From Myxococcota bacterium (lineage in GTDB: Bacteria > Myxococcota_A > UBA796 > UBA2385): a DNA stretch of 64,000 bases. Made by a program: the position numbers and the translations under genes. How positions within the stretch are numbered: position 1 is the first letter of the stretch; every line of letters starts with the position of its first letter. The notes below the pieces were generated by a model. That model was not told the DNA's origin, did not search any database, and worked only from the letters and a program-made list of their open reading frames with translations. Shown here piece by piece: positions 29,692 through 41,868 of this stretch. Location: contig JBIJDH010000004.1 of the NCBI GenBank assembly GCA_044344255.1, positions 192,001-256,000 on the forward strand, written 5' to 3'.

Positions 29692-30786
29692 ATGTCCGAC
29701 GAACCGACCGCCCTCGAGCTCTTGAAGAAGAAGAAGGTCCCGACCCGCCGGTCGCTCGGGGACGGGCTGGTGGGCAAGGTCGGAGCGCGGGGCTGGCAGC
29801 GGCCGAACGTGGCGGTCAGTGACCGCCTGTTCAAGCATTATCATGTGGTCGATCCCTGGGATCCCGAAGGGAAGCAGGAGAAGGACCCCATCGGCCTCGG
29901 CGACAGCGCGCTCCGGATGGGCGAGCCCAAGCGGGAGGTCGCCCCGCACCTCAAGCCCCCGGAGGTCGGCGGAGGGGCGCTCGGCCCCGGCAAGGCGGCG
30001 GCCAGCCCGGGCGGCAAGCCGTCCGAGGTCGATCCGCTGGCCAAGTGGCGCCGTCCTGCGGTCAAGCCGACCGGCGAGGAGGCGGCGCCCACCCACAAGC
30101 CCGCCGCGGCGCCAGCCGGGGAGGCCGGGGCCCGCCCGCCCTTGCCCACTCCGATCCCGGGTGCGCCGAAGGAGCGGAAGCTCACACCGGGGCTCTTCGA
30201 CGGCTCGAAGAAGCCGGGAGCCAGTGGAGAGTTCGGCGGCAGCAAGGACCGCCCCGCCCTCAAGGGGCCGCTGCCGATGCGCCCCGACGCTCCGCCGGGG
30301 AAGGCCCCGCCGCAGGCCCCGGGGGGCGCTGCGGGGGGAGGCTCGGCCCGGCCCGCGTCGGCGGCCCCCGCCAAGGCGCCGCCGGCCCCCGCCCGCGCGG
30401 TCGGCGCCCCGAACCCGGCCGCTGCCCTGCCCCGCCCGCCGATCGCCCGCCCGGCGGGCGTTGGGGGAGGCGCCAGCGGGGGGCGCGCCGCCGGGCCTGC
30501 GTCGGGGGCCAACACCGGCAGCGGTCGCTTCGGGGCCCGCAATCAAGTGCGGAGCCTGAGCGTCGAGGACGTAGAGCCAGAGATCCGCGAGGTCACGCTC
30601 GCGCCCGTCGGGACCTCGCCCCCTCCGATGAGCGAGTCCGCGTCGGAGGCGCCGGCGCCTGCCAAGGTCGAGCCCGCCAAGGTCATCGATCGGCGGATCC
30701 CCACCGGCCCCATCGGCCTCGACGACATCTTTGGCGGGAGCTCCGAGGGCCGTATCCGGCGCCCCAAGAAGGGGGAGGGGAAGTGA
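29692..30786 (+). CDS. Hypothetical Pro/Ala/Gly/Lys-rich, largely disordered protein
   Basis: Genome-typical codon usage in this frame; fills the gap between + strand genes; no recognisable domain. Confidence 0.7.
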   Translation: MSDEPTALELLKKKKVPTRRSLGDGLVGKVGARGWQRPNVAVSDRLFKHYHVVDPWDPEGKQEKDPIGLGDSALRMGEPKREVAPHLKPPEVGGGALGPGKAAASPGGKPSEVDPLAKWRRPAVKPTGEEAAPTHKPAAAPAGEAGARPPLPTPIPGAPKERKLTPGLFDGSKKPGASGEFGGSKDRPALKGPLPMRPDAPPGKAPPQAPGGAAGGGSARPASAAPAKAPPAPARAVGAPNPAAALPRPPIARPAGVGGGASGGRAAGPASGANTGSGRFGARNQVRSLSVEDVEPEIREVTLAPVGTSPPPMSESASEAPAPAKVEPAKVIDRRIPTGPIGLDDIFGGSSEGRIRRPKKGEGK

Positions 30787-30861
30787 AGCCGTGGTGAAAT
30801 TCGCCCGCGGAGAGCGGAGGTCGAAGGAGTCGGCTACAATGTGCAGATGGAAGGAGTCCTC

Positions 30862-31620
30862 ATGAAGATCCTGACTGCGGTGCGGTCCCCCTCCTCGGCC
30901 TCACGCTTCGCCGCGGTCGGCCTGCTGCTGGTGGCGTGCGGCACCGCGAAGGTGGACATCCAGCTCGGTGACGAGATGGACAGTGATGAAGATGGGCTGT
31001 CCGACGCGGGTGAGATCGACGAGGGCACCGACCCGACCTCCGATGACTCGGACGGCGACACCTGGAGCGACGGCGAAGAGTTCGAGCAGGGCACCGACCC
31101 CCTGAGCGAGCTCGATCACCCGTACACGGGCGGCTGGAAGATCGACAAGGAGTGTCGAAACATGGCGCCCGACACCACGGGGGCCAATGAGGGCGACATC
31201 GCGGCCAACTTCACGTTGGTCGACCAGTACGGTGACAATGTTCGCCTCTATGATTTCTGCAACCACGCGGTGTTGTTGATATCGGCCGCCTTCTGGTGAG
31301 GCAGCTGCGTCTCTGAGGCTCAGGGACTCGAAGAAGAATACCAGGCTCGTAAAGATCGCGGCTTCATCATCCTCAGCATGATCGGGGAAGATCTGACTGG
31401 GGCCGCGCCCACAGCCGAGCAGCTCAAGGTGGACTGGGCTGACAAATACGGCATCACGGCGCCGGTCTTGTCGGACGGTGGCTTCGGCGTCGGGTGGACT
31501 TACATGAGCGGTGGCCTCCCCAGCCAGACGCTCCTCGCTCCTGGCATGGAGATCATCATCAAAGATGGGTACCCCATCTCCGGCGAAGCCATCGACGAAG
31601 TGCTGCCCGTCCCGGAGTGA
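30862..31620 (+). CDS. Probable selenoprotein: thioredoxin-fold (TlpA/redoxin-like) lipoprotein with DxDxDG Ca-binding repeats; TGA 31297-31299 read as Sec (UGSC)
   Basis: AAGGAG RBS and ATG 30862; lipobox LLVAC. The track ORFs 30841-31299 and 31378-31620 are in one frame, separated only by TGA in ...LLISAAFW-TGA-GSCVSEAQGLEEEY...; SECIS-like hairpin follows; Cys paralog at 34341. Confidence 0.85.
31309..31327 (+). promoter_or_regulatory. Putative bacterial SECIS hairpin
   Basis: GUCUCUGA-GGC-UCAGGGAC: 8-bp stem with one G-U pair; apical loop begins with G, 17 nt after the UGA. Confidence 0.7.
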
Positions 31621-31638: not shown

Positions 31639-34230
31639 TTGCGCAGCGTGCTCTTGTGGCTGGCGATGGCGGGCTTCGGCCCGGTCGCCTCTGCCTCGGA
31701 TGGTCTCTTGTTGTTGCCGCCGGGCCCGATCCTCGCCGATGGCGAGACGGTGACCCGCATTCAGGTCTGGGGCCCCATGATCGGCCCCGACTCGAAGGTG
31801 AAGGCGAAGGGCAGCGGACTGAAGGTCGTCGAGATCAGCGCGGCCCCGGGTCTGCTCACGCTCTCGTTGACCGCCTCCGAACAGACGGCCCCGGCGAACG
31901 CGTCCTTGCACGTGTCCGTGAAGGGGGCGGGAGGTGAGGCGGAGGCTGATCTTGGCCTCTCCCTGGTCCCGCCTCCCGATCAGCCGCTCCCCCTCAGCTT
32001 CGAGCCCGCCCTCGCTCGCGCTGGGGTGGACGCCAGCGTGCTGGTGCGGGTCCGTGTCCCGCCCGGACCGCAGGCCGCCGCGAGCCGACGGCTCCTCCTG
32101 ACCGCCTCGGTGGGCACGGTGGACGCCGTCACCCCCTCCGCTGACGGCTCCTTCGTCGCGCGATGGACGCCCCCTCCGAAGCCCGACCGTTCGCGGATCG
32201 TGGTCTTCACGGCGGCCGACGCCGCGGCCCCCGACACCGCCGTGGGGGTGGGGCTCCTGCCGCTCGTGGTCAAACGATCGGTCACCGTCGACGCCCCGGC
32301 GGGCAGCTCCAACCTGCTCGTCCTCGGCGATCGCAGCTACGGTCCGGTCCCGGCGTCCCCGGCGGGCACGGTGGCCTTCGACGTCGAGGTCAACCCCACC
32401 GCGCCGAGCGCGACGCTGCGGAGCACGATCCAGGGCGCGACCACCGACAAGCCGGTCGATCTCGCCTACGGTGAGGCCCCCGCTTGGTCCTTCCTGCCCC
32501 TGCCCGCCGTCGCTCTGGCCGATCCTTCCACCCCCTTTTTGGTCGGGTTGGCGGTCGTCGGGGCCGATGGGGGTCCTTGGAAGGGCTCGCTCCCCAGCCT
32601 CACCGCCAACCAGGGACAGATCGGCCCGGTCACGGCCGGCGAGCTGGCCGGCGTCTACCGCGCGCTCTACACCCCGAGTCCGGCCCCGGGCCCCGTCACC
32701 TTTGCCGCGAAGCTCGACAGCATGGAGCTGAGCCGCACGGTCGCGCTGGCGGCCCGCTTGCCGACGCTCTCGGTCACGACGACGCCCACCTCGCTCGAGC
32801 CGGGTAAGAAGGAGGTGGTGATCACCGCCCTCCTCAAGGACGCCAATGGCACCTCCGTGCCCGGCGCGCCGCCCGACATCCTGGTCGACGGGCTCGAGAA
32901 GGTGGGCAAGCCCATCGACAACAAAGACGGCACCTACCGCCTCAACACCAAGGTGAAGGCCTCGGCCGGGCAAGCCCTCGTGTTGGCCGAGCCGAACATG
33001 AAGGCCTCCGCGGAGGGGCCGGCGCGCCTCGTCGCCTGGACCGCCGACGCCTCCGTGGAGCCCGGCCATGTGGACTACCTCGTGGTGGCCGCGGTGGACC
33101 GCTTCGGGAACCCGATCGCCAACCTTCCGCTGAGCTTCTCGGTGCCGGTGGGGGACGGCAGTCTCAGCCCCTCCGGGAAGACCGACGGCAAGGGCCTCGC
33201 CTGGGTCGCATACACGGCGGGCAGCCGATTGGGGCCGGTGACGCTGCGGGTGCAGGGCGCGGGCCTGCAGGACGAGCTCGCGCTCTTCCAGGGTGCGGCG
33301 CCAGCCGGCCTCCTCCCCCCTGACGCCCTCGAGGCGCGCTGGCGCGCCGCGGTCGGGCTCGCCGTGCTGGACGGCCCGAAGGCTGCCGTGCCGGTGGCGG
33401 TGGCCGCCCCGGCTGGCTCCCCGTCGACCTCCGCGGCCGCGGCGCCGGTCGCGAGCGCGGCGCCGGTCACCTCGGCCGCGCCCGCCGCCGCCGCTGCGGC
33501 GACCTCGACGACGAAGGTCAAGGCGCCCAAGGCCCCGCGCGCCGCCTCGAGCGGCGACAAGGCTCCGACGCGGCTGATGCTCGGGCTCGCGACGATGCCG
33601 CGCACCTTCTCGATGACCGCCGAGGACGCGGCCGGCTCGGTGCCGCCCGAGGCGAGCTACTCCTCGGGTGACCTGTTTGGTGGTGACCCGTTCGGCGGCG
33701 CCGGGATTGACCTCCGGGCCGAGCTCGGCTTTAACGAGACCTGGGTGGCAGATGTCCGCGCGCGGCTGGGCGTCGAGTCGGTCGAGGCGGGCCACGACGA
33801 GCAGTCGATCAAGTCCTGGTCGGGGGCCGTGGGCGCCCGCTATCGGCGGGAGCTGACGGACGGGGTGCATTACTACGGCATCGGCCAGATCCACCGTATC
33901 TCCGCACCCTACTTTCAGTATGGGGACGAGCGGAAGGTGGTCGTGGACGTCCACCAGGCGAGCAAGGTCGGCCTGCGGGCGGGCGGCGGCCTGGAAGCGG
34001 CGATCGGGCCGGTCTTCGCCGAGCTGGAGGCCACCGAGACCTTGGTCCCCTTGCCCGCCGATGCGCACCTCGGACTCCTCCTCGGCGTGGCGGTCCAGAG
34101 CAACATGGCCGTGCACCTCGGGGTCGATCTTGACTGGCTGGCCATCCGCGAGACGGTGGACGAGGTCGACATCAAGCTCAAGTCAAAGGAGCAGGTGCTC
34201 TTCCTCGGCGGGACGCTCGCCTTCGATTGA
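31639..34230 (+). CDS. Secreted/outer-membrane protein with several Ig-like (Big_1/invasin-like) domains and a C-terminal beta-barrel
   Basis: AGGAG RBS and TTG start; signal peptide; repeated DGSFVARWTPP / GVYRALYTP / DGTYRL; VDRFGNPI...TDGKGLA Big_1-like unit; Ala-rich linker; amphipathic strands ending LAFD. Confidence 0.7.
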   Translation: MRSVLLWLAMAGFGPVASASDGLLLLPPGPILADGETVTRIQVWGPMIGPDSKVKAKGSGLKVVEISAAPGLLTLSLTASEQTAPANASLHVSVKGAGGEAEADLGLSLVPPPDQPLPLSFEPALARAGVDASVLVRVRVPPGPQAAASRRLLLTASVGTVDAVTPSADGSFVARWTPPPKPDRSRIVVFTAADAAAPDTAVGVGLLPLVVKRSVTVDAPAGSSNLLVLGDRSYGPVPASPAGTVAFDVEVNPTAPSATLRSTIQGATTDKPVDLAYGEAPAWSFLPLPAVALADPSTPFLVGLAVVGADGGPWKGSLPSLTANQGQIGPVTAGELAGVYRALYTPSPAPGPVTFAAKLDSMELSRTVALAARLPTLSVTTTPTSLEPGKKEVVITALLKDANGTSVPGAPPDILVDGLEKVGKPIDNKDGTYRLNTKVKASAGQALVLAEPNMKASAEGPARLVAWTADASVEPGHVDYLVVAAVDRFGNPIANLPLSFSVPVGDGSLSPSGKTDGKGLAWVAYTAGSRLGPVTLRVQGAGLQDELALFQGAAPAGLLPPDALEARWRAAVGLAVLDGPKAAVPVAVAAPAGSPSTSAAAAPVASAAPVTSAAPAAAAAATSTTKVKAPKAPRAASSGDKAPTRLMLGLATMPRTFSMTAEDAAGSVPPEASYSSGDLFGGDPFGGAGIDLRAELGFNETWVADVRARLGVESVEAGHDEQSIKSWSGAVGARYRRELTDGVHYYGIGQIHRISAPYFQYGDERKVVVDVHQASKVGLRAGGGLEAAIGPVFAELEATETLVPLPADAHLGLLLGVAVQSNMAVHLGVDLDWLAIRETVDEVDIKLKSKEQVLFLGGTLAFD

Positions 34231-34340
34231 CCGGGGCGCCCTCGCCAGACCTGACCTGAAGTTGGCGAGCGCGGAAGATGTCCCGCTGCCGATCGTCAGT
34301 CGCTTTGGCTATACTCTTGCAGTCTTCCACGGAGCCTTCG

Positions 34341-35222
34341 ATGCGCCTTCTCCTCCTCGGCCTCCCCCTGTTCGTTGTCGCTTGCTCAGGCGGCAAGAGC
34401 TCCTCTGACCGTTCGAATGACCAGAGCACGAGCGGCGACGGGGGCGGCGGCGATTCGACCACCGACACCGACGGCGACGGTGTAACGGACAGCGACGAAG
34501 AGGCCGCCGGCACTGACCCTGCTGCCGCTGACTCCGACGCCGACGGGATCATGGATGGGGACGAGCTCGCGGGTGGCACGGATCCCCTCTCCGGTGACTC
34601 CGATGAAGACGGCTACCCCGACGGCGCGGAGGTCGCCGCTGGCTCCGATCCCAACGACGCCTCCAGCCTCCTCTACACCGGCGGCTGGCCTTACAACCCG
34701 AACAAGGACTCCATGACCGCCGGTGACCCGGAGGACATGGCCGCCGTGGACGGTGTGGTGCCGCGCTTCGTGTTCATGGACCAGTATGGCGACATGGTCG
34801 ACATCTATGACTTCGCCCAGCAGGGCAAGCCGATGATCATCGACCTCTCGGGCGTCTGGTGCTACTGGTGTAATGAGGCCGCCAAGCTCATCGAAGGGAG
34901 CCCCAGCGCGCTCGACGGATACGGCTTTGAGGGCATCCACGACGCCATTGTCAACGGTGACGTGTACTGGATCACCATCCTCGACTCCAATCGCTCCGGG
35001 GCCCCGGCCGCCGACGACACCGCCGAGAACTGGTTCAACCTCTACCCCTTTGAGCCCGTGCTGGTGCTGAGCGACGTGAACCAAGAGTCCACCGCCTGGA
35101 TCGCGCCCTCCGGCTACCCCACCATGATGTTCGTCGATGAGAACATGGTCATCACGAACTACAAGAAGGCCGACTACACCAAGGCGATCACCGCGGCGAT
35201 CAACTACTCCGAGTCGCTCTGA
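34341..35222 (+). CDS. Thioredoxin-fold lipoprotein with DxDxDG (bacterial TSP3-like) repeats, WCYWC active site
   Basis: Lipobox VVAC; three DxDxDG..D..E...G.DP repeats; YTGGW; DQYGDMVDIYDF; IIDLSGVWCYWC; SGYPT cis-Pro loop; TATACT -10-like hexamer at 34310-34315. Confidence 0.88.
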   Translation: MRLLLLGLPLFVVACSGGKSSSDRSNDQSTSGDGGGGDSTTDTDGDGVTDSDEEAAGTDPAAADSDADGIMDGDELAGGTDPLSGDSDEDGYPDGAEVAAGSDPNDASSLLYTGGWPYNPNKDSMTAGDPEDMAAVDGVVPRFVFMDQYGDMVDIYDFAQQGKPMIIDLSGVWCYWCNEAAKLIEGSPSALDGYGFEGIHDAIVNGDVYWITILDSNRSGAPAADDTAENWFNLYPFEPVLVLSDVNQESTAWIAPSGYPTMMFVDENMVITNYKKADYTKAITAAINYSESL

Positions 35223-35254: not shown

Positions 35255-35298
35255 AGGCCCCGGGGAGCACGATCCAAGGATCGTGCTCTTCGGGGCCT
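35255..35298. terminator. Long hairpin between convergent genes (likely terminator)
   Basis: 21-nt arms AGGCCCCGGGGAGCACGATCC / GGATCGTGCTCTTCGGGGCCT with two G-U pairs, followed by CTCTCTTT; a small hairpin at 35229-35246 precedes it. Confidence 0.75.
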
Positions 35299-35328: not shown

Positions 35329-36915
35329 CTACTTCCCCGGGGGCGCGGCTTCGCGCATTCCGGCGGGGCAGTCCGGCTTAGCCTCGATCCGGTAGTAGCC
35401 CACCTCGTCGGCCCAGAACTCGCCCTCGTAGGGCCAGGCTCGCCAGCCCGGCTTGACCCGGGCCTTCCGGCCGACGGTGTCGCGGACCTTCGCCATGTCG
35501 CCGGTGGCCGCGGCCATCTCGTAGAGGCGCGTCTCCATGCTGAGCATGTCCAGCTTGGAGAGCTCGGCGTCGGCCAACATCTGGTCGAGGGCGGCGCTCA
35601 TCTTCTGGGCGTCGGCCTGGATGCGCTTGCCTTCGGTCTGGCGGATGGAGGCCTTACGGTCGGCCACCCAGCCCTTCGCGGCGCGGCTGAAGGGGTTGGC
35701 GGCGATGTTGTCGAGCCGCTTTGACTCGTCTTCGGCGGAGCGCACGGCGCGCAGGCTGCCCAGGAAGCGGTCTTCTGCCTCGAAGTGCCAGGTCACCATC
35801 GCAGGGATCTGGTTGCTGCCGCCGTTCTTCTTCTCGACGTGGTCGGCCATCTGGTCGAAGAGGGCGTCCGGGGTCTCGGCGGCGACCCGCTTCAGCTCGG
35901 CGGCCTTGGGCGTGTAAGCCACCTGGAAGGCGGCCACCTGGCGGCTCGCTTCGGGGAACTTGCACATCAAGAAGAGCGAGTGGATGCGGAGCAGCCAAGC
36001 CTCTGGGTAGAACCACTGGTCGAAGAAGGGCGACACGTGGTTCTGGAGGAGGCTCAGGGCGCCGTTCATGTCATTGACACGGAAGTGCGCCCAGGCCCGC
36101 TCGAATTCCGCCTCCGGCCAGTCCCGGCTGCCGCGCTGCACCTTCGCGTAGTACTCGATGGCGCGCGGGAAGTTGCCCGCCGCGTAGTAAGCGCGGGCGA
36201 TGTTGAGGTCGGTGTGATTGAAGAACTCGCTGCCGCGGCCGAGCTTCTCGGCGGAGCCCCGCGCGGTGAGCAGCGGCGCGAGGGCGTCTACGGGCTTTCC
36301 CTGGAGCGAGAAGTTGATGCCCTCGAGGGTCTTGGCCTCCGGGTACCAGGGGTCCTCGGGGCGCACCATCTTGAGGATGGCCCCGGCGGTGCCGAAGTTA
36401 CCGGAGTGGACGGACTCGCGGGCCGCGAGGTAGGCCATCCGGCTGCGGGTGGCGGGATCGACCTCGAGGCCGACGTTTGCAGCGAACACCTTCTCGAGGA
36501 CCCCGGTGTCACCGACCTTCTCGCCGAGCTCAATCGCCAGCTTGGCGGAGTCGCTGACGAGGACGGGATCTTTGGCGAGGGCCTTCTCGTAGGCGAGGAG
36601 GGCGGCGTAGGGCAGGTCGAGCTCGCGCAGCACGCCGCCGAGCCGGGCCCAGGCCTCGGCGTGAAACTTGTCGTTGGCCGGGTTCTCGACGATCTCGACC
36701 AGCAGGTCAGCGGCCTTGGCCTTCCGCCCTTCTTTGTAGGCCGTGTCGACCTCGCCGAAGACCTTGGCCCGCTCGGCCATGTCGAGCGTGGAGCCAGCCT
36801 CGGTCTTCGAGGCGGTCTCGGGCTTCTTGGCCTCACCCTTCTCGTTCTTCTTCGCCGCCCAAGCCGGCCCGCCGAGGCAGAGCGCGAGCCCGAGCAGCAG
36901 GGCGGAGGGCCTCAT
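35329..36915 (-). CDS. TPR protein, GltC-like (myxobacterial gliding complex)
   Basis: Signal peptide; TPR helices (LNIARAYYAAGNF, AEFERAWAHF); SPFFDQWFYPEA; C-terminal WPYEGEFWADEVGYYR...C, characteristic of GltC-type proteins; ATGA overlap with the upstream gene. Confidence 0.75.
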   Translation of the reverse strand: MRPSALLLGLALCLGGPAWAAKKNEKGEAKKPETASKTEAGSTLDMAERAKVFGEVDTAYKEGRKAKAADLLVEIVENPANDKFHAEAWARLGGVLRELDLPYAALLAYEKALAKDPVLVSDSAKLAIELGEKVGDTGVLEKVFAANVGLEVDPATRSRMAYLAARESVHSGNFGTAGAILKMVRPEDPWYPEAKTLEGINFSLQGKPVDALAPLLTARGSAEKLGRGSEFFNHTDLNIARAYYAAGNFPRAIEYYAKVQRGSRDWPEAEFERAWAHFRVNDMNGALSLLQNHVSPFFDQWFYPEAWLLRIHSLFLMCKFPEASRQVAAFQVAYTPKAAELKRVAAETPDALFDQMADHVEKKNGGSNQIPAMVTWHFEAEDRFLGSLRAVRSAEDESKRLDNIAANPFSRAAKGWVADRKASIRQTEGKRIQADAQKMSAALDQMLADAELSKLDMLSMETRLYEMAAATGDMAKVRDTVGRKARVKPGWRAWPYEGEFWADEVGYYRIEAKPDCPAGMREAAPPGK

Positions 36916-37646
36916 GACTTCCTCTTGCCGAGCTTGCTGTAGCCGATGGTGATGGCCGCGTTCTGCTTGAGGAAGAAGCCCTGGGAGTCGGCGGTCTTGA
37001 CCCGCTTCTCTCGCAGGAGGTCGTCTCGGACCTGCACGCGGATGGTGCCGGTGTCGTGTACGAAGAAGCGCATCCCCACCCCGAGGCCGAGGGTGGGGGA
37101 GAAGGCCATCGCGTTGTCGGGCAAGATGGCCTGCTCGGCCGAGACGCCGAGGCCGCCGAGGCCGTAGATGTCGTAGTGGGCGATCTTCTTGCCGGCGAGG
37201 CTCATCTTGGCGTAGATCGGCGACCACTGGGCGTCGACGAGGAAGCTGCCGAGGAAGCGATAGGCGTCGGGCGTGATGCCGTAAGCGTCGCTCTCCAAGA
37301 TCTTGTAGTTGGCGTTCTTCAGGCCGTAGCCCCCGGTGAAGGAGCCTTCGAAGCCGAGCTGTTCGCTCTTGCTCCACATGCCGGTGAGCTGGAACACCGG
37401 CGTGGTGGTGTAGGTGTCGAAGGGCATCCAGCCGAGGTGGGCGCCGAGCTCCAGGCGGCCCGTCTTCGGGAAGAGCAGCTTCTGCACGACGGTGATGTCC
37501 TGGTTCTTCAGGACGCCGATGTCGAGCGGGCTGCTCACCGCCGGCTTGTCCGCGCTCGGCGGCGGAATATCGTCGTCACTCTGGGCGAAGGCCGCGCGGG
37601 AGGCCAGGAGGGCCATGCCGGTCGCGAGGAGGGCGCGCAACATCAT
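36912..37646 (-). CDS. Small outer-membrane beta-barrel, GltA/GltB-like
   Basis: Signal peptide; ITVVQKLLFPKTGRLEL, WSPIYAKMSL, GLGVGMRFF, as seen in the myxobacterial GltA/B-type OMP family. Confidence 0.75.
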   Translation of the reverse strand: MMLRALLATGMALLASRAAFAQSDDDIPPPSADKPAVSSPLDIGVLKNQDITVVQKLLFPKTGRLELGAHLGWMPFDTYTTTPVFQLTGMWSKSEQLGFEGSFTGGYGLKNANYKILESDAYGITPDAYRFLGSFLVDAQWSPIYAKMSLAGKKIAHYDIYGLGGLGVSAEQAILPDNAMAFSPTLGLGVGMRFFVHDTGTIRVQVRDDLLREKRVKTADSQGFFLKQNAAITIGYSKLGKRKS

Positions 37647-37708
37647 CGACACACCACGGAAGACAGGGGGACAAACAGGGAAGGGCGAGAGACGGGGCGC
37701 ACGCGGGG

Positions 37709-39112
37709 CTAAAAGGGCAGCTCCCGCGGGTTTCCGGACAGCGGCCGGTAGTAGATGCGGACGTCGGCGTTGTAGCCGGGCACCTGATCGGGCCAGAAGA
37801 CCACCGCGTTCTGGGCGGAGTCGTAGCTCCAGCCGTCGGCGTAGATGGGCTCGGTGGAGGGGTCTTCAGAGATCGCATCGGCGTTCTCGATGGTCGCCGA
37901 AGGGATCTCCTCCCCGTCGATCCACACCTGGATGGTGCTGGTGTCGGGCACGCTCTGGAGCTGGAACACCGTCTGCAGGTTGTTCAGCAGGTCGCCGAGC
38001 TGCTCGAGGTAGGTGGCGAAGTCGGAGAGCTCGCAGGCGTCGTCGGAGGCGCCGGGGGCGACGATGTTCTGGTAGAAGCCGCCTGTCACGGTGGCGGCGT
38101 CTTGCAGGCGCTCGACGCTCCAGGTGGGGACGGCGTCGGCGCACTTCACGCCGCCGGTGGCCGGATCGAGGTAGGGCCCGATGGCCACGATCTTGATCGG
38201 GCGCTCGAACTCGGAGAGGAGGTCGAGGTAGGGCTGGGGGTCCGCCTCGCCCTGCGAGAGGCGGCGCGAGTTGTCTCCTTCATCGCTGACGATCACCACC
38301 ACGACCGTGCTGTCGTCGCGGAGGAAGCCGTCGTTGGTGTACTCAGGCGGCACGATGAAGGGGGAGAGGGGGTCATAGCAGCCCTCGGGGGGCTCCTCGA
38401 CCGAGCGGCACAAGGCGAGGTACGCCGCCTCGAGCGGCTCCTCCTGGCCGGAGCCGCTGTTGCCCTGCCAGCCGTCGATACCGCACTCGCAGTCGAGGTA
38501 CTCGAGGGAGATGAGGTCGTCGGGGCCGAGGGGGGTGCCGCAGATGTAGGCGGAATCCGAGGTGAGCGCGCTCTCGTTCCAGCTCGCCGCCTCACAGAGC
38601 AGGTTGCGGCGGAAGTCTCCCTCCACATCGTCTCCGCCGCGGGCCACGACGGTGGGATCGCCGAGCAGCCGCCCGGCCTCACCGGGGTCTACGCCGTCGG
38701 AGTCACCGAAGCCGGCGTAGTCCACCGAGGTGGACGTGATCGCGAGGTGGTAGTCGATGATGCTGCCGCGGTCGCTCGTGTAGGTCACGTAATTGGCGAC
38801 GGCGTCTTCGAGGCTGCCGGTGGGGGGCTCGGAGCCCCGCAGCGTCTCGATGAACGTATTGAAATTGAGCCCGAGCGAGGCTGTCTCCTCTACCATCGAC
38901 GGGGAGTTGTCGATGACGAAGAGGATGTCGGCCTGGTTCGAGTACGAGACCTGCTCGTATCCGGCGACGTTGAACATCGCGTACCGGTTGCAGCCGGGCA
39001 GGGCGCCGAGCGCGGCGATCGCCGCGAGGCCGGCGAAGCGGGCGGTGACCCGGTCTGCGCGGTGGAGCAAGGCAGGGAAGGCAGAACGTACGGGCTGGTG
39101 AAGGGCCACCAT
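37709..39112 (-). CDS. Cys-rich VWA-domain lipoprotein, CglB-like
   Basis: GGAGG RBS; lipobox LPGC; MIDAS DILFVIDNSPSM; GSGQEEPLEAA; GFLRDDSTVVVVIVSDEGDNS; several Cys residues. Confidence 0.75.
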   Translation of the reverse strand: MVALHQPVRSAFPALLHRADRVTARFAGLAAIAALGALPGCNRYAMFNVAGYEQVSYSNQADILFVIDNSPSMVEETASLGLNFNTFIETLRGSEPPTGSLEDAVANYVTYTSDRGSIIDYHLAITSTSVDYAGFGDSDGVDPGEAGRLLGDPTVVARGGDDVEGDFRRNLLCEAASWNESALTSDSAYICGTPLGPDDLISLEYLDCECGIDGWQGNSGSGQEEPLEAAYLALCRSVEEPPEGCYDPLSPFIVPPEYTNDGFLRDDSTVVVVIVSDEGDNSRRLSQGEADPQPYLDLLSEFERPIKIVAIGPYLDPATGGVKCADAVPTWSVERLQDAATVTGGFYQNIVAPGASDDACELSDFATYLEQLGDLLNNLQTVFQLQSVPDTSTIQVWIDGEEIPSATIENADAISEDPSTEPIYADGWSYDSAQNAVVFWPDQVPGYNADVRIYYRPLSGNPRELPF

Positions 39113-39297
39113 CGCCTCCGGGGAGCGGCGCTCAGTGTACCGGGGTCGGGTGGGCTGCCGCAAGGAAGCCACCCCGGAGAGGACCTGCAAGTTTGTGTCA
39201 ACTGCGCTGCCCGGGGGAGCAGAGCGCGGGGAGCGTCGTGCCGGTGCGGCGCAGCGCAGGGGGGGAGACCGAGAGGGGAGGGGAGGGCGTCGGGGGG

Positions 39298-41868
39298 TCA
39301 GAGGTTGCGGACGATCGTCTCGATCGTGCGGAAGGTGTGTGAGACCCTCGGTTGGACGGCCTGACCGCGCGTCCGATGGTGCTCGATGAGGTGGGCCCAC
39401 AGGGAGGCGAACTCATCACGGATCTTGTCGTAGTCGCGGTTCTGGACGAGCTCGCCCATACGGACCACCGGCGGGGGTGCGCCCTCCGGGTAGCAGGCGC
39501 GCATCCGCCCCACCGTCTCTTGGAGGAGCATCGCGATGGGGTCTTGTGCGGGCGGTGCGGCCGCCGCGGGCCGGGGCGCGCGCGGGGGAGCGCCGCTGGG
39601 GGCAGGGGCCTCGTCCTCCACCATCATGAGCGGGGTGGTGACGGGGCTCCCGGCAGGGGAGGGAGGTCGGAAGGGGACGTCTTCGACGATGCGGGCGGGC
39701 GCGAGCGGGGCCTCGGTCGTCGGTCGGGTCGGGGCAGGGGAGCGCTGCGGGGGGGTGGGCTCCGGGGTGGGCAAGGAGGGCGCGCTGCGGGGGAGCCGAG
39801 CGGTGGGCTCGGCGGCGATCTGCGCGCCGCCCCGCGGCGGGGCAGGGGTGAGCGCGCCGGACATGTCGAAGACGGCGTCCGCCGACAGGTCGTCGGCCAC
39901 GTCTTCCATGCCGATGAGCTCGACCGGCAGCCGGTGGGTGTCGGTCGGCTCGTCGAGGGGCTCTGGCGCCGGCATCTGGGGGGCTGGCGTGGCGGCGGGG
40001 GCCGGGGGGCTCGGCTCCACGGGCGGCGGGGCGGTGGTCTCGTCGGAGGGCGTGAGCTGGAACAGGACCTCGACCGAGCTGTTCGGATCGGGCCAGCCCG
40101 CGGACGGTCGGGCGGCCTTCGCTCCCGGCTCGTCGCTCGTGGCGACCTGGGGAGCGGGCGCGCCCACCTCGTCGGTCGGGTCTACCAGCAACATCGGCGG
40201 CGCGATCCGCGGCGAGGCGGGGGCCGCGGCGGCGCTCGCTTCGACGGTGGGCGGATCGCTGACGGGCGGGGCCAGGGGCGCGGCGGCGGGGGGTGTCTCG
40301 GGCGCCGCGGCCTCTCTGGCCTGTTGTGCCGCGAGCTCGATCTCGGCGGCGAGCAGCTCGGCCTCGATCTGGGCTGCGATCTGGCGTTCGATCTGCTCGG
40401 CCTGCGCCTGCTCGGCTCGTCGCGCGGCTTCGCGCTCTTCGGCGGCTCGCAGCGCCGCCGCGGCCGCCTCCTGCGCGGCGCGGCGCTGCTCCTCGGCGGC
40501 TCGTTCGGCCTCAAGTCGCTCGGCCTCGAGTCGCTCGGCCTCGAGTCGTTCGGCCTCGAGTCGTTCGGCCTCGAGTCGTTCGGCCTCGAGTCGCTCGGCC
40601 TCGAGTCGTTCGGCCTCGAGTCGTTCGGCCTCGAGTCGCTGGACCTCTCGCCGGGCGGCCTCCAGCCGCTCGGCCTCTCGGCGAGCGACCTCCTGCCTCT
40701 CGGCCTCTCGGCGCTCGGCCTCTCGCCGGGCGGCCTCGGATCGCTCGGCCTCGACGCGGGCGGCCTCGAGCCGCGCCGCCTCGACGCGGGCGGCCTCGGC
40801 GCGGGCGGCCTCGGCGCGGGCGGCGTCGACTCGGGCCTCCTCCGCCTTCGCGGCGGCCTCGGCGCGGGCGGCGGCCAGCCGATCGGCGTCGATCCGGGCG
40901 GCCTCGATCCGGGCGGCCTCGGCCTGCGCCGCCTCCATCCGCGTGACCTCCTCGGCCAAGGGCGTGCGGGCCGGGGTGGGCAGGCGGTGCAGGCCGCGGT
41001 CGTTGAGGAAGCGGTCCACGTCCTGGCCGAGCAGGGACTCGAGGTCGCTCAGGCGGAGGCAGCCCTTGACGCCGGTGAGGCTGAGCTGCTCGTGGTTGTG
41101 GCACTCCACCACCGTGACCCGGCCGGCGGTGCCCGCCTCGAAGCTCACGGTGGGGGCGATGAAGACGTCGGACTGCAGGCGGGTCTCGCCCACTCGGATG
41201 CTCGTACGGGCCTGGGCGACCTTGAGCTCCGCCCGCCCGCCGTCGAGGCGGATGGTGTCCGCGCGGAGGGAGTCGGCCTCGACGTTGCCGTGCAGCTCTG
41301 CGCTCTCACCGGCTCGGAGCTCCGTGGCGTGGACCGGGCCTCGGGCCTCGAGGTCGGTCCCGGCGACGATCAGGCGGGCGCGGGTGGCGCCCCGGAGGTC
41401 GAGGCGCCCCTCGGTGGCCTCGACGCGATCGGCCACGGTGTCGCCGCCGATCGACACGGCGCCGTGCCGGGCGAGGATGTCGCCCTTCACACGGCAGGCG
41501 CCGCTCACGACCAGGTCGCCCACTTCGATGTGGAGGCTGTTGGCCTCGACGTTCCCTTCGATACGGACCTCGGCGCCGACCACGGTGTGCGCCCGCAGGT
41601 TCCCGCCGATCCGAAGCCCCTGGGCCGTGACCGCCTCGGCGGTGAGCGAGCCCGTGACCTCGATGTTGCCCTCGGGCGCCTCGACCCGGCTGAGCTGGGC
41701 GTCAAAGTGGAGGTGGACGTTGCCGAGCCGCGAGCGGACCTTGTGGAGGCGCTGCCCGAGGGTGCCGTACAGGACGATGTCCCCGTCGTGCTCGATCTCG
41801 AGCCCACCCTCGACCTGATGGAAGACGAGGCCGGCGGGGACGACAAAGGGGTCGGTTCGGGTGCCCAT
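39298..41868 (-). CDS. Bactofilin-like beta-solenoid protein with charged helical repeat and Pro-rich linker
   Basis: N-terminal ~300 aa of repeated (I/V)xGx(L/V)xA units (IEVTGSLTAE, LRIGGNLRA, VRIEGNVEA, ELHGNVEA), then (ERLEA)n, a Pro-rich region and a short helical C-terminal domain. Confidence 0.65.
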   Translation of the reverse strand: MGTRTDPFVVPAGLVFHQVEGGLEIEHDGDIVLYGTLGQRLHKVRSRLGNVHLHFDAQLSRVEAPEGNIEVTGSLTAEAVTAQGLRIGGNLRAHTVVGAEVRIEGNVEANSLHIEVGDLVVSGACRVKGDILARHGAVSIGGDTVADRVEATEGRLDLRGATRARLIVAGTDLEARGPVHATELRAGESAELHGNVEADSLRADTIRLDGGRAELKVAQARTSIRVGETRLQSDVFIAPTVSFEAGTAGRVTVVECHNHEQLSLTGVKGCLRLSDLESLLGQDVDRFLNDRGLHRLPTPARTPLAEEVTRMEAAQAEAARIEAARIDADRLAAARAEAAAKAEEARVDAARAEAARAEAARVEAARLEAARVEAERSEAARREAERREAERQEVARREAERLEAARREVQRLEAERLEAERLEAERLEAERLEAERLEAERLEAERLEAERLEAERAAEEQRRAAQEAAAAALRAAEEREAARRAEQAQAEQIERQIAAQIEAELLAAEIELAAQQAREAAAPETPPAAAPLAPPVSDPPTVEASAAAAPASPRIAPPMLLVDPTDEVGAPAPQVATSDEPGAKAARPSAGWPDPNSSVEVLFQLTPSDETTAPPPVEPSPPAPAATPAPQMPAPEPLDEPTDTHRLPVELIGMEDVADDLSADAVFDMSGALTPAPPRGGAQIAAEPTARLPRSAPSLPTPEPTPPQRSPAPTRPTTEAPLAPARIVEDVPFRPPSPAGSPVTTPLMMVEDEAPAPSGAPPRAPRPAAAAPPAQDPIAMLLQETVGRMRACYPEGAPPPVVRMGELVQNRDYDKIRDEFASLWAHLIEHHRTRGQAVQPRVSHTFRTIETIVRNL
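40501..40635. repeat. 15-bp coding tandem repeat x9 (encodes LEAER)
   Basis: TCG(C/T)TCGGCCTCGAG units; degenerate 15-bp units continue to about 40920. Confidence 0.95.

Follow-up and report, generated by a model that had tools for sequence, protein, structure and literature searches.

Genes and features of the locus

The window, by which we mean the whole stretch of 64,000 nucleotides that was analysed, belongs to an 8.2 Mb Myxococcota genome (G000; 71% GC, 95% complete). Two open reading frames in it, 30841-31299 and 31378-31620, form one frame, and the sole in-frame stop before 31618 is the TGA at 31297-31299. Read through this TGA, a single frame runs from the ATG at 30862 to the TGA at 31618-31620 on the plus strand and encodes a TSP3-repeat, ResA/TlpA-like putative lipoprotein of 252 residues, in which codon 146 lies in the context A-A-F-W-U-G-S-C (Table 1). 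An earlier note on this DNA had described two same-frame ORFs split by one TGA, a lipobox LLVAC with two D-x-D-x-D repeats, and a TGA at the first Cys of a redoxin WCxxC motif. The frame check confirmed the split gene and its 252-residue read-through product. The lipobox and the repeats are both present, the latter above the Pfam cut-off for TSP3_bac and with Asp residues that are invariant in 31/31 aligned rows. The position of the TGA was also borne out because the AhpC-TSA/Redoxin matches of the read-through product extend across it and exceed their cut-offs (PF08534, 39.3 bits against 26; PF00578, 29.0 bits against 26.6). An assembly error, which the note had allowed for and which should have left TGC or TGT in the reads, did not materialise: codon 146 is TGA in contigs from three independent runs of other studies, two of DNA (X8 and X11) and one of RNA (X15). 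The RNA contig has two differences in the downstream half of the gene, both at third positions and both synonymous. The stretch occurs in 20 runs, every one a metagenome from a freshwater, lake or river site.

The gene leads a run of three, namely, the redoxin, an Ig/barrel gene and a Cys paralogue, followed by a terminator. The Ig/barrel protein has a signal peptide, tandem Ig-like (Big_1/invasin-type) domains, a Pro/Ala linker and a C-terminal beta-barrel of about 10 strands; it contains no Cys in G000 and 0-3 in relatives. A sigma-70 promoter scan gave 0 sites. Upstream of the operon lies a Pro/Ala-rich ORF of 364 residues with no Pfam match (29692-30786, plus strand), which is found there in G007, G016 and G019 as well. 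On the minus strand at 35329-39400 there is a gliding-like cluster that consists of a GltC-like TPR protein, a MIDAS/VWA-like protein and an OMP_myx_plus barrel; apart from the barrel, their scores are under or close to the NCBIfam cut-offs. A conserved linkage of the operon to these gliding-like genes (GltC-like, OMP_myx_plus) was rejected, since it was seen in 1/20 long loci.

Table 1 Features of the locus (window positions) and other probable selenoprotein genes of G000 (genome:contig:positions)
Feature	Position	Strand	Evidence or remark
Selenoprotein gene (very probable)	30862..31620	+	frame, Pfam, TGA/Cys column, structure model and fold matches
GGAG, ribosome-binding-site-like motif	30853..30856	+	5 nt before ATG 30862; database fragment shares start Met
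Putative lipoprotein signal peptide, lipobox LLVA-C26 (Cys codon 30937-30939)	30862..30939	+	sequence
Two bacterial TSP3 (D-x-D-x-D-G) repeats	30979..31107	+	PF18884, 27.2 bits against cut-off 25; putative Ca2+ binding
Cys98, first of non-catalytic Cys pair	31153..31155	+	invariant in 31/31 aligned rows; putative structural disulfide
Cys133 (D-F-C), second of pair	31258..31260	+	invariant in 31/31 aligned rows
TGA, almost certainly Sec146, predicted attacking residue of U-G-S-C	31297..31299	+	TGA/Cys column, independent contigs, database fragments
Cys149, predicted resolving Cys	31306..31308	+	kept in 75/75 TGA members
Bacterial SECIS-like hairpin, 8-bp stem, GGC loop 17 nt past UGA	31309..31327	+	folding, recoding, consensus given in PMC13188914
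Pro220 of G-L-P, cis-Pro loop position	31519..31521	+	invariant in 31/31 rows; cis geometry presumed from fold family
Downstream operon partner, 863 aa, Ig-like/beta-barrel	31639..34230	+	domain searches, model, homologous loci
Cys paralogue: lipobox, 3 TSP3 repeats, W-C-Y-W-C	34338..35222	+	last gene of probable operon
Strong terminator-like hairpin closing three-gene run	35255..35298	+	20 pairs; consensus scan only
BCP-type T-G-G-U lipoprotein	G000:C18:120176-121126	+	
Propeller + ResA-like W-U-P-A-C lipoprotein	G000:C18:61929-63956	-	
TUGYCR lipoprotein	G000:C26:174945-175661	-	
UshA-like multihaem lipoprotein	G000:C14:172697-174472	-	
SelL-related	G000:C51:89087-89716	+	
FdhA	G000:C54:29210-31210	-	

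TGA and Cys at the same column in the homologues

The homologue search gave matches in 61/61 genomes, 150 of 349 being listed. We took the DNA at about 110 of these 150 places (30 loci and the next-best rows), which yielded 131 distinct genes once duplicates and short or gapped matches, three named loci among them, had been dropped. A pattern search that required Cys, and was blind to TGA members, gave 8 close named loci; a search of representatives with a profile was overwhelmed by giant TSP3-repeat proteins, and we made no use of it. In the 131 genes, which are kin and whose counts are not independent, the Sec column holds TGA in 75, Cys in 52 and another residue in 4, and TGA occurs in 40 genomes. 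The note had looked to TGA/TGC alternation with conservation on both sides as a check, and this is what we found. Cys follows at +3 in all 75 TGA genes, giving U-x-x-C, and the frame past the TGA is 85-119 codons long in 74 of them, one ending at the edge of its locus. A G-P dipeptide is mostly gone from the TGA genes and is kept in 35/52 Cys genes. In eight close pairs pN/pS was 0.07-0.50 downstream of the TGA compared to 0.03-0.51 upstream. Neither the all-Cys orthologues nor the relaxed selection past the TGA that the note had named as evidence against its reading was observed. The family is multi-copy, with up to 7 TGA copies in one genome among the genes examined. The expectation that annotation pipelines would fragment such genes also held, because 66 of the 120 best homologues in the protein database stop on the residue just before the Sec column. 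None of these best 120 was seen to carry U as a full-length entry, and the display may render U as C.

With the TSP3 part omitted, matches at E 1e-14 were obtained in 54/58 sampled genomes of the window's class versus 2/243 elsewhere in the phylum; members with TGA extend to other orders of this class and to a single genome beyond it. The source labels on homologues and neighbours indicate Myxococcota. Two records labelled Enterobacterales and Klebsiella pneumoniae (L060 and L063) carry the redoxin family, the latter with an Ig/barrel neighbour; the labels look doubtful. Four members, one at G000:C31:26197-27006 on the minus strand (L100) and those at L164, L171 and L183, carry Asp, Ser or His in place of the catalytic residue and keep the lipobox and the fold, and two further members carry C-x-x-N/S. 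It is possible that members without the catalytic residue are non-redox paralogues. The homologues G023:C64:240-890 and G040:C56:8938-9606 have two TGA codons inside the listed match; in both, the matched core contained a single U, and the second TGA is probably a true stop.

The SECIS-like hairpin

The hairpin that follows codon 146 has a folding energy of -8.9 kcal/mol. According to section 5 of PMC13188914, the bacterial SECIS consensus is a loop of 3-9 nt with G first, a stem of 4-16 bp, a distance of 16-37 nt from the UGA and an energy of -7.5 kcal/mol or lower, and the hairpin agrees with all four of these terms. Its stem uses the rare codons TCT (3/110), GCT (18/191) and GGA (7/150), and when the gene was recoded synonymously only 1 in 2000 sequences gave a hairpin at -6 kcal/mol or better. 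Across the family, a G[G/U]N-loop hairpin of -6 kcal/mol or lower is present in 53/75 TGA genes and in 0/52 Cys genes, whereas in synonymous shuffles of the 75 TGA genes a mean of 10.2 and a maximum of 17 pass the same rule. Twenty-two of the 75 TGA members fail at -6 kcal/mol and 11 fail at -5. In six other G000 genes with known-type Sec sites a loop lies at 17-19 nt, compared to 96/4173 ordinary TGA gene ends. The fold of the hairpin depends on its context in silico: in a 64-nt window starting at the UGA another fold is more stable than the hairpin (pair probability about 0.27, z +1.08), and the hairpin is lost when the first 12 nt past the UGA are excluded from folding. Redoxins at the same position beside an Ig/barrel gene have their hairpin at 17, 20, 21, 23 or 29 nt, largely by family. 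RNAalifold on ungapped rows found no consensus hairpin because the hairpins lie in different registers.

Codon 146 as a selenocysteine codon

The genes selA, selB, selD and selC, which the note had proposed to look for, are all present in G000: SelA at E 1e-118, SelB above its cut-off, SelD, and a tRNA-Sec of 64 bits with anticodon UCA. SelD, on C52 at about 341150-343530 of the plus strand (L017), is a Cys form (C-G-G-C-A-A-K) fused, in a frame of 793 codons, to a preceding domain that resembles pyridine-nucleotide oxidoreductases, this N-terminal domain having been named by eye. SelA was found in 59 of the 61 genomes searched. One of the two negative genomes (G014) is just 78% complete; the other (G056) is 97% complete, has no SelA match and no tRNA-Sec above the cut-off, and its six query matches are all Cys forms, none with TGA.

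Because of the Sec machinery, the TGA/Cys alternation, the SECIS-like hairpin, purifying selection on both sides of the codon and the truncated database entries, we conclude that UGA codon 146 is almost certainly a conserved selenocysteine codon, at which SelB and Sec-tRNA, bound to the hairpin, would insert Sec. The same five lines uphold the main claim of the earlier note, a selenoprotein hidden as a split gene. If instead the UGA were decoded as Trp or Cys without Sec, or were a regulated stop giving mainly a TSP3-only lipoprotein, then the context dependence of the hairpin would be in keeping with it and so would a truncated product, which probably co-exists because Sec insertion in bacteria is incomplete. 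This is very unlikely, as TGA is the main stop codon of G000 (3522/4454 long gene ends), the Sec column alternates with Cys only, the hairpins track the TGA, and the SelA-less genome G056 has Cys. That the gene is a pseudogene or carries a sequencing error has a negligible probability, given that the codon is identical in independent contigs and in 75 homologues, that the downstream half is under purifying selection and that both differences in the RNA contig are synonymous.

Predicted fold, export and function

The AlphaFold2 model of residues 38-252 has a pLDDT of 96 and a pTM of 0.90. The best fold matches are to ResA and its extracytoplasmic thioredoxin relatives (for ResA, Foldseek E 1e-11; VIA Z 18.2 to 2f9s, rmsd 1.9 over 134 residues), and these bear little on the N-terminal 68 residues. 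ResA also scores best by sequence in 31/31 rows, and the model combines a thioredoxin fold with C/U-x-x-C and the cis-Pro loop position; the predicted product belongs to the ResA/TlpA type of thioredoxin-fold protein and has U-G-S-C. A Glu three residues past the second Cys is present in 24/26 TGA rows, and we take it to correspond to E80 of ResA in position and presumably in role (PDB 2h1b is among the matches). The earlier note had envisaged an exported, lipid-anchored selenoenzyme on a Ca-repeat stalk; the selenoenzyme part stands and the stalk is doubtful, since the TSP3 part is modelled as ordered and the high pTM suggests that it packs on the redoxin rather than forming a loose stalk. 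Cys98 and Cys133 tend to co-occur or to be jointly absent across the wider homologue set, and such a pattern would suit a structural disulfide formed in an oxidising compartment. By regular expression, a similar lipobox is found in 55/75 Sec and 38/52 Cys homologues (93/127); that of the query, with its short h-region, was recognised by eye. In the M. xanthus sorting rules, as given in PMC3222651, +2 Lys directs a lipoprotein to the inner membrane and +7 Ala to the matrix. The predicted mature N-terminus has neither, and by analogy an outer membrane location would be a weak default if these rules carry over.

We favour, with moderate confidence, a joint reading in which the protein is a Sec-recoded, lipid-anchored envelope disulfide reductase that has a TSP3 unit, is recharged by DsbD and acts on envelope clients. 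The putative signal would export the protein, with the lipid anchor on Cys26 and the domain facing the periplasm; the TSP3 repeats would bind Ca2+ and, together with the Cys98-Cys133 disulfide, make a rigid N-terminal unit. Sec146 would attack a disulfide (or a sulfenic acid) on an envelope protein, Cys149 would resolve the mixed selenosulfide, and DsbD, which G000 encodes, would re-reduce the redoxin. Its clients are likely to be enzymes of envelope repair or antioxidant defence, such as the exported MsrA with a lipobox that G000 encodes and the lipoprotein BCP-type selenoperoxiredoxin; an exported MsrA is the type of client described for the pneumococcal Etrx lipoproteins (PMC3914529). A role in cytochrome c maturation was rejected because G000 has a separate CcmG-like gene beside ccmF in its ccm operon.

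With the usual G-P dipeptide gone from most Sec members, the sequence fits a reductase, oxidase, isomerase or peroxidase alike, and two other functions of a true selenoprotein have to be weighed. An envelope peroxidase or sulfenic-acid reductase with GPx/Prx-like selenol chemistry would agree with the loss of the G-P dipeptide in Sec forms, with a weak GSHPx match (E 0.0016, below cut-off), with weak matches among the 31 rows to models of glutathione peroxidase (12 rows) and of BCP (8 rows), with BCP/AhpE folds at Z 15, and with the three haem-copper oxidase subunits of G000, which make oxidative stress plausible. We consider it improbable because the query has A-A-F-W-U-G-S-C in place of the PxxxTxxC/U peroxiredoxin motif, ResA is the best match both by sequence and by structure (Z 18.2 versus 15.3), and the resolving Cys at +3 is kept in every TGA gene. 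The second is that the selenoprotein is a dedicated partner of the Ig/barrel protein, either as a folding or isomerase helper or as a redox head on an outer-membrane scaffold. A family redoxin lies directly upstream of the Ig/barrel gene in 16 of 25 assessable loci (of the 30 best), and with further loci the pair is found in 24 genomes of 6 families; in the window the two genes are 18 nt apart and have a common terminator, and the RNA-library contig spans the query into the next gene, which is not proof of a single transcript. On the other hand, 9/25 loci have no redoxin before the Ig/barrel gene, in G007, G016, G023, G029 and G045 another upstream neighbour abuts it directly, the partner is Cys-free in G000, and most members of the redoxin family are located elsewhere, so that a dedicated partnership is unlikely. 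The abutting neighbours in these five genomes show that the link between the redoxin and the Ig/barrel gene is old but dispensable. As to the envelope disulfide reductase that we favour, no conserved redox partner gene was found near the query among the loci compared.

The Ig/barrel protein itself is present in 57/61 genomes, often in 2-4 copies, with its domain order reversed relative to invasins. It matched no named family, and a fold search of its model gave generic Ig-array matches only. In G019 (contig C124) the gene is in three frame-shifted pieces.

Other probable selenoproteins of the genome

Six more probable selenoprotein genes were found in G000, namely, FdhA, SelL-related, BCP-type, ResA-like, TUGYCR and UshA-like (Table 1), by a heuristic scan that misses genes with weak or distant hairpins. 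Five of the seven selenoproteins found, the query included, have a lipobox. The BCP lipoprotein and the propeller fusion do not reach any NCBIfam cut-off. The candidate at C75:18826 has no redox motif and was dropped, its TGA being probably a genuine stop. On the minus strand of G000:C43, at 63408 and 63687, lie two short frames (42 + 24 codons) that resemble each other and are 279 nt apart; each is split by a TGA and has a GU/GG-loop hairpin at 21 nt, and they may belong to a repeat-protein gene read from its opposite strand. The selenoproteome looks mostly exported, in a freshwater organism with haem-copper oxidases, and PMC13188914 expects few selenoproteins in such oxidase-bearing organisms.

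Switching between Sec and Cys

Among 24 redoxins at the same position, which is not proof of orthology, 22 have Sec and 2 have Cys, the latter in two members of one genus, G012 and G019. G019 retains SelA and tRNA-Sec along with a Sec paralogue, and its whole neighbourhood is common to G000. The trees, a quick tree of 127 rows and a chosen 51-row subset without a mixture model, in which deep nodes are not resolved, need 11 Sec/Cys changes counted without direction; at least four are forced by strong branches and 0/200 bootstrap trees allow a single change. On these sequence comparisons, Sec and Cys have switched several times in the redoxin family. The published view, as stated in PMC1794560 and in section 10 of PMC13188914, is that a change from Sec to Cys is uncommon and that the phylogenies of SECIS elements match those of the proteins.

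A wider reading is possible but doubtful, namely, that an order-wide operon forms one envelope redox device, made of a Ca-binding selenoenzyme and an outer-membrane Ig/beta-barrel scaffold, whose SECIS would have been rebuilt inside the gene's coding part on five or more occasions (17, 20, 21, 23 and 29 nt) and whose Sec would have given way repeatedly to Cys while the genomes retained the Sec machinery, all in oxidase-bearing, uncultured myxobacteria-like bacteria. If this is the case, then it would contradict the catalogued views that reversion from Sec to Cys seldom happens and that few aerobes retain selenoproteins. The same-position genes with five SECIS distances and the syntenic Sec/Cys pair of G000 and G019 offer a natural test of how a SECIS arises and moves within coding sequence and of the benefit of Sec over Cys in the cell envelope.

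Comparison with known systems

Thioredoxins of the ResA/TlpA/CcmG/Etrx type have in common with the query the fold (Z 18.2 to ResA 2f9s, as above, and 14.7 to the lipoprotein Etrx2), the C/U-x-x-C-x-x-E motif, the L-P loop and an export signal, which in the query is putative. The query differs in having Sec for the attacking Cys, a TSP3 unit and multiple copies; it does not belong to the ResA or CcmG families as defined, since it scores 41 bits against the NCBIfam ResA cut-off of 170 and lies outside the ccm operon. CglD and MtsD of the myxobacterial envelope are weak matches with TSP3-type repeats in an exported protein, but they are adhesion proteins of large size that lack a redoxin domain, and the repeat alone is common to them and the query.

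NCBIfam already names lipoprotein selenoproteins. NF041054 (ResA-like, WAxxUGC) and NF053656 (TUGYCR) are thioredoxin-fold selenoprotein families like that of the query with a different motif, and the TUGYCR member in G000 is also a lipoprotein. The query matched neither of these nor any other selenoprotein model of NCBIfam (release 20.0) at E 0.01; 14/31 relatives match NF041054 weakly (best E 6e-9) and 0/31 match NF053656. By these model searches, the query belongs to the broad redoxin superfamily (PF08534, PF00578) and its family is outside every NCBIfam-defined family, selenoprotein or not. UxxC selenoproteins of PF00578, PF08534 and cd02966 are catalogued in Table 1 of PMC13188914, and with these the query shares the Pfam domains, the U-x-x-C motif and the recoding route; PMC9312934 also records UxxC selenoproteins of this type. 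Its lipobox, TSP3 repeats and extra Cys pair do not figure in the descriptions of these types there, a distinction by description and not by sequence, and a term check of that paper for 'lipoprotein', 'thrombospondin' and 'Myxococc' gave 0 occurrences. In the literature searched, including term checks of PMC13188914, PMC9312934, PMC13326102 and PMC12013277, we found no description of a TSP3-lipoprotein selenoprotein. BSepDB screened Myxococcota genomes, the genome list in its supplement having at least 447 occurrences of 'Myxococc', and it may hold members of the family under a generic label.

Since UxxC redoxin selenoproteins are already catalogued, the query is a lineage-specific variant of a selenium-enzyme type that is known in general, and not a new kind. 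What it adds is a multi-copy, class-wide selenoprotein family that is unnamed in NCBIfam and truncated in the database in 66/120 best matches, and its interest lies in this truncation, the moving SECIS and the switching between Sec and Cys more than in the enzyme itself.
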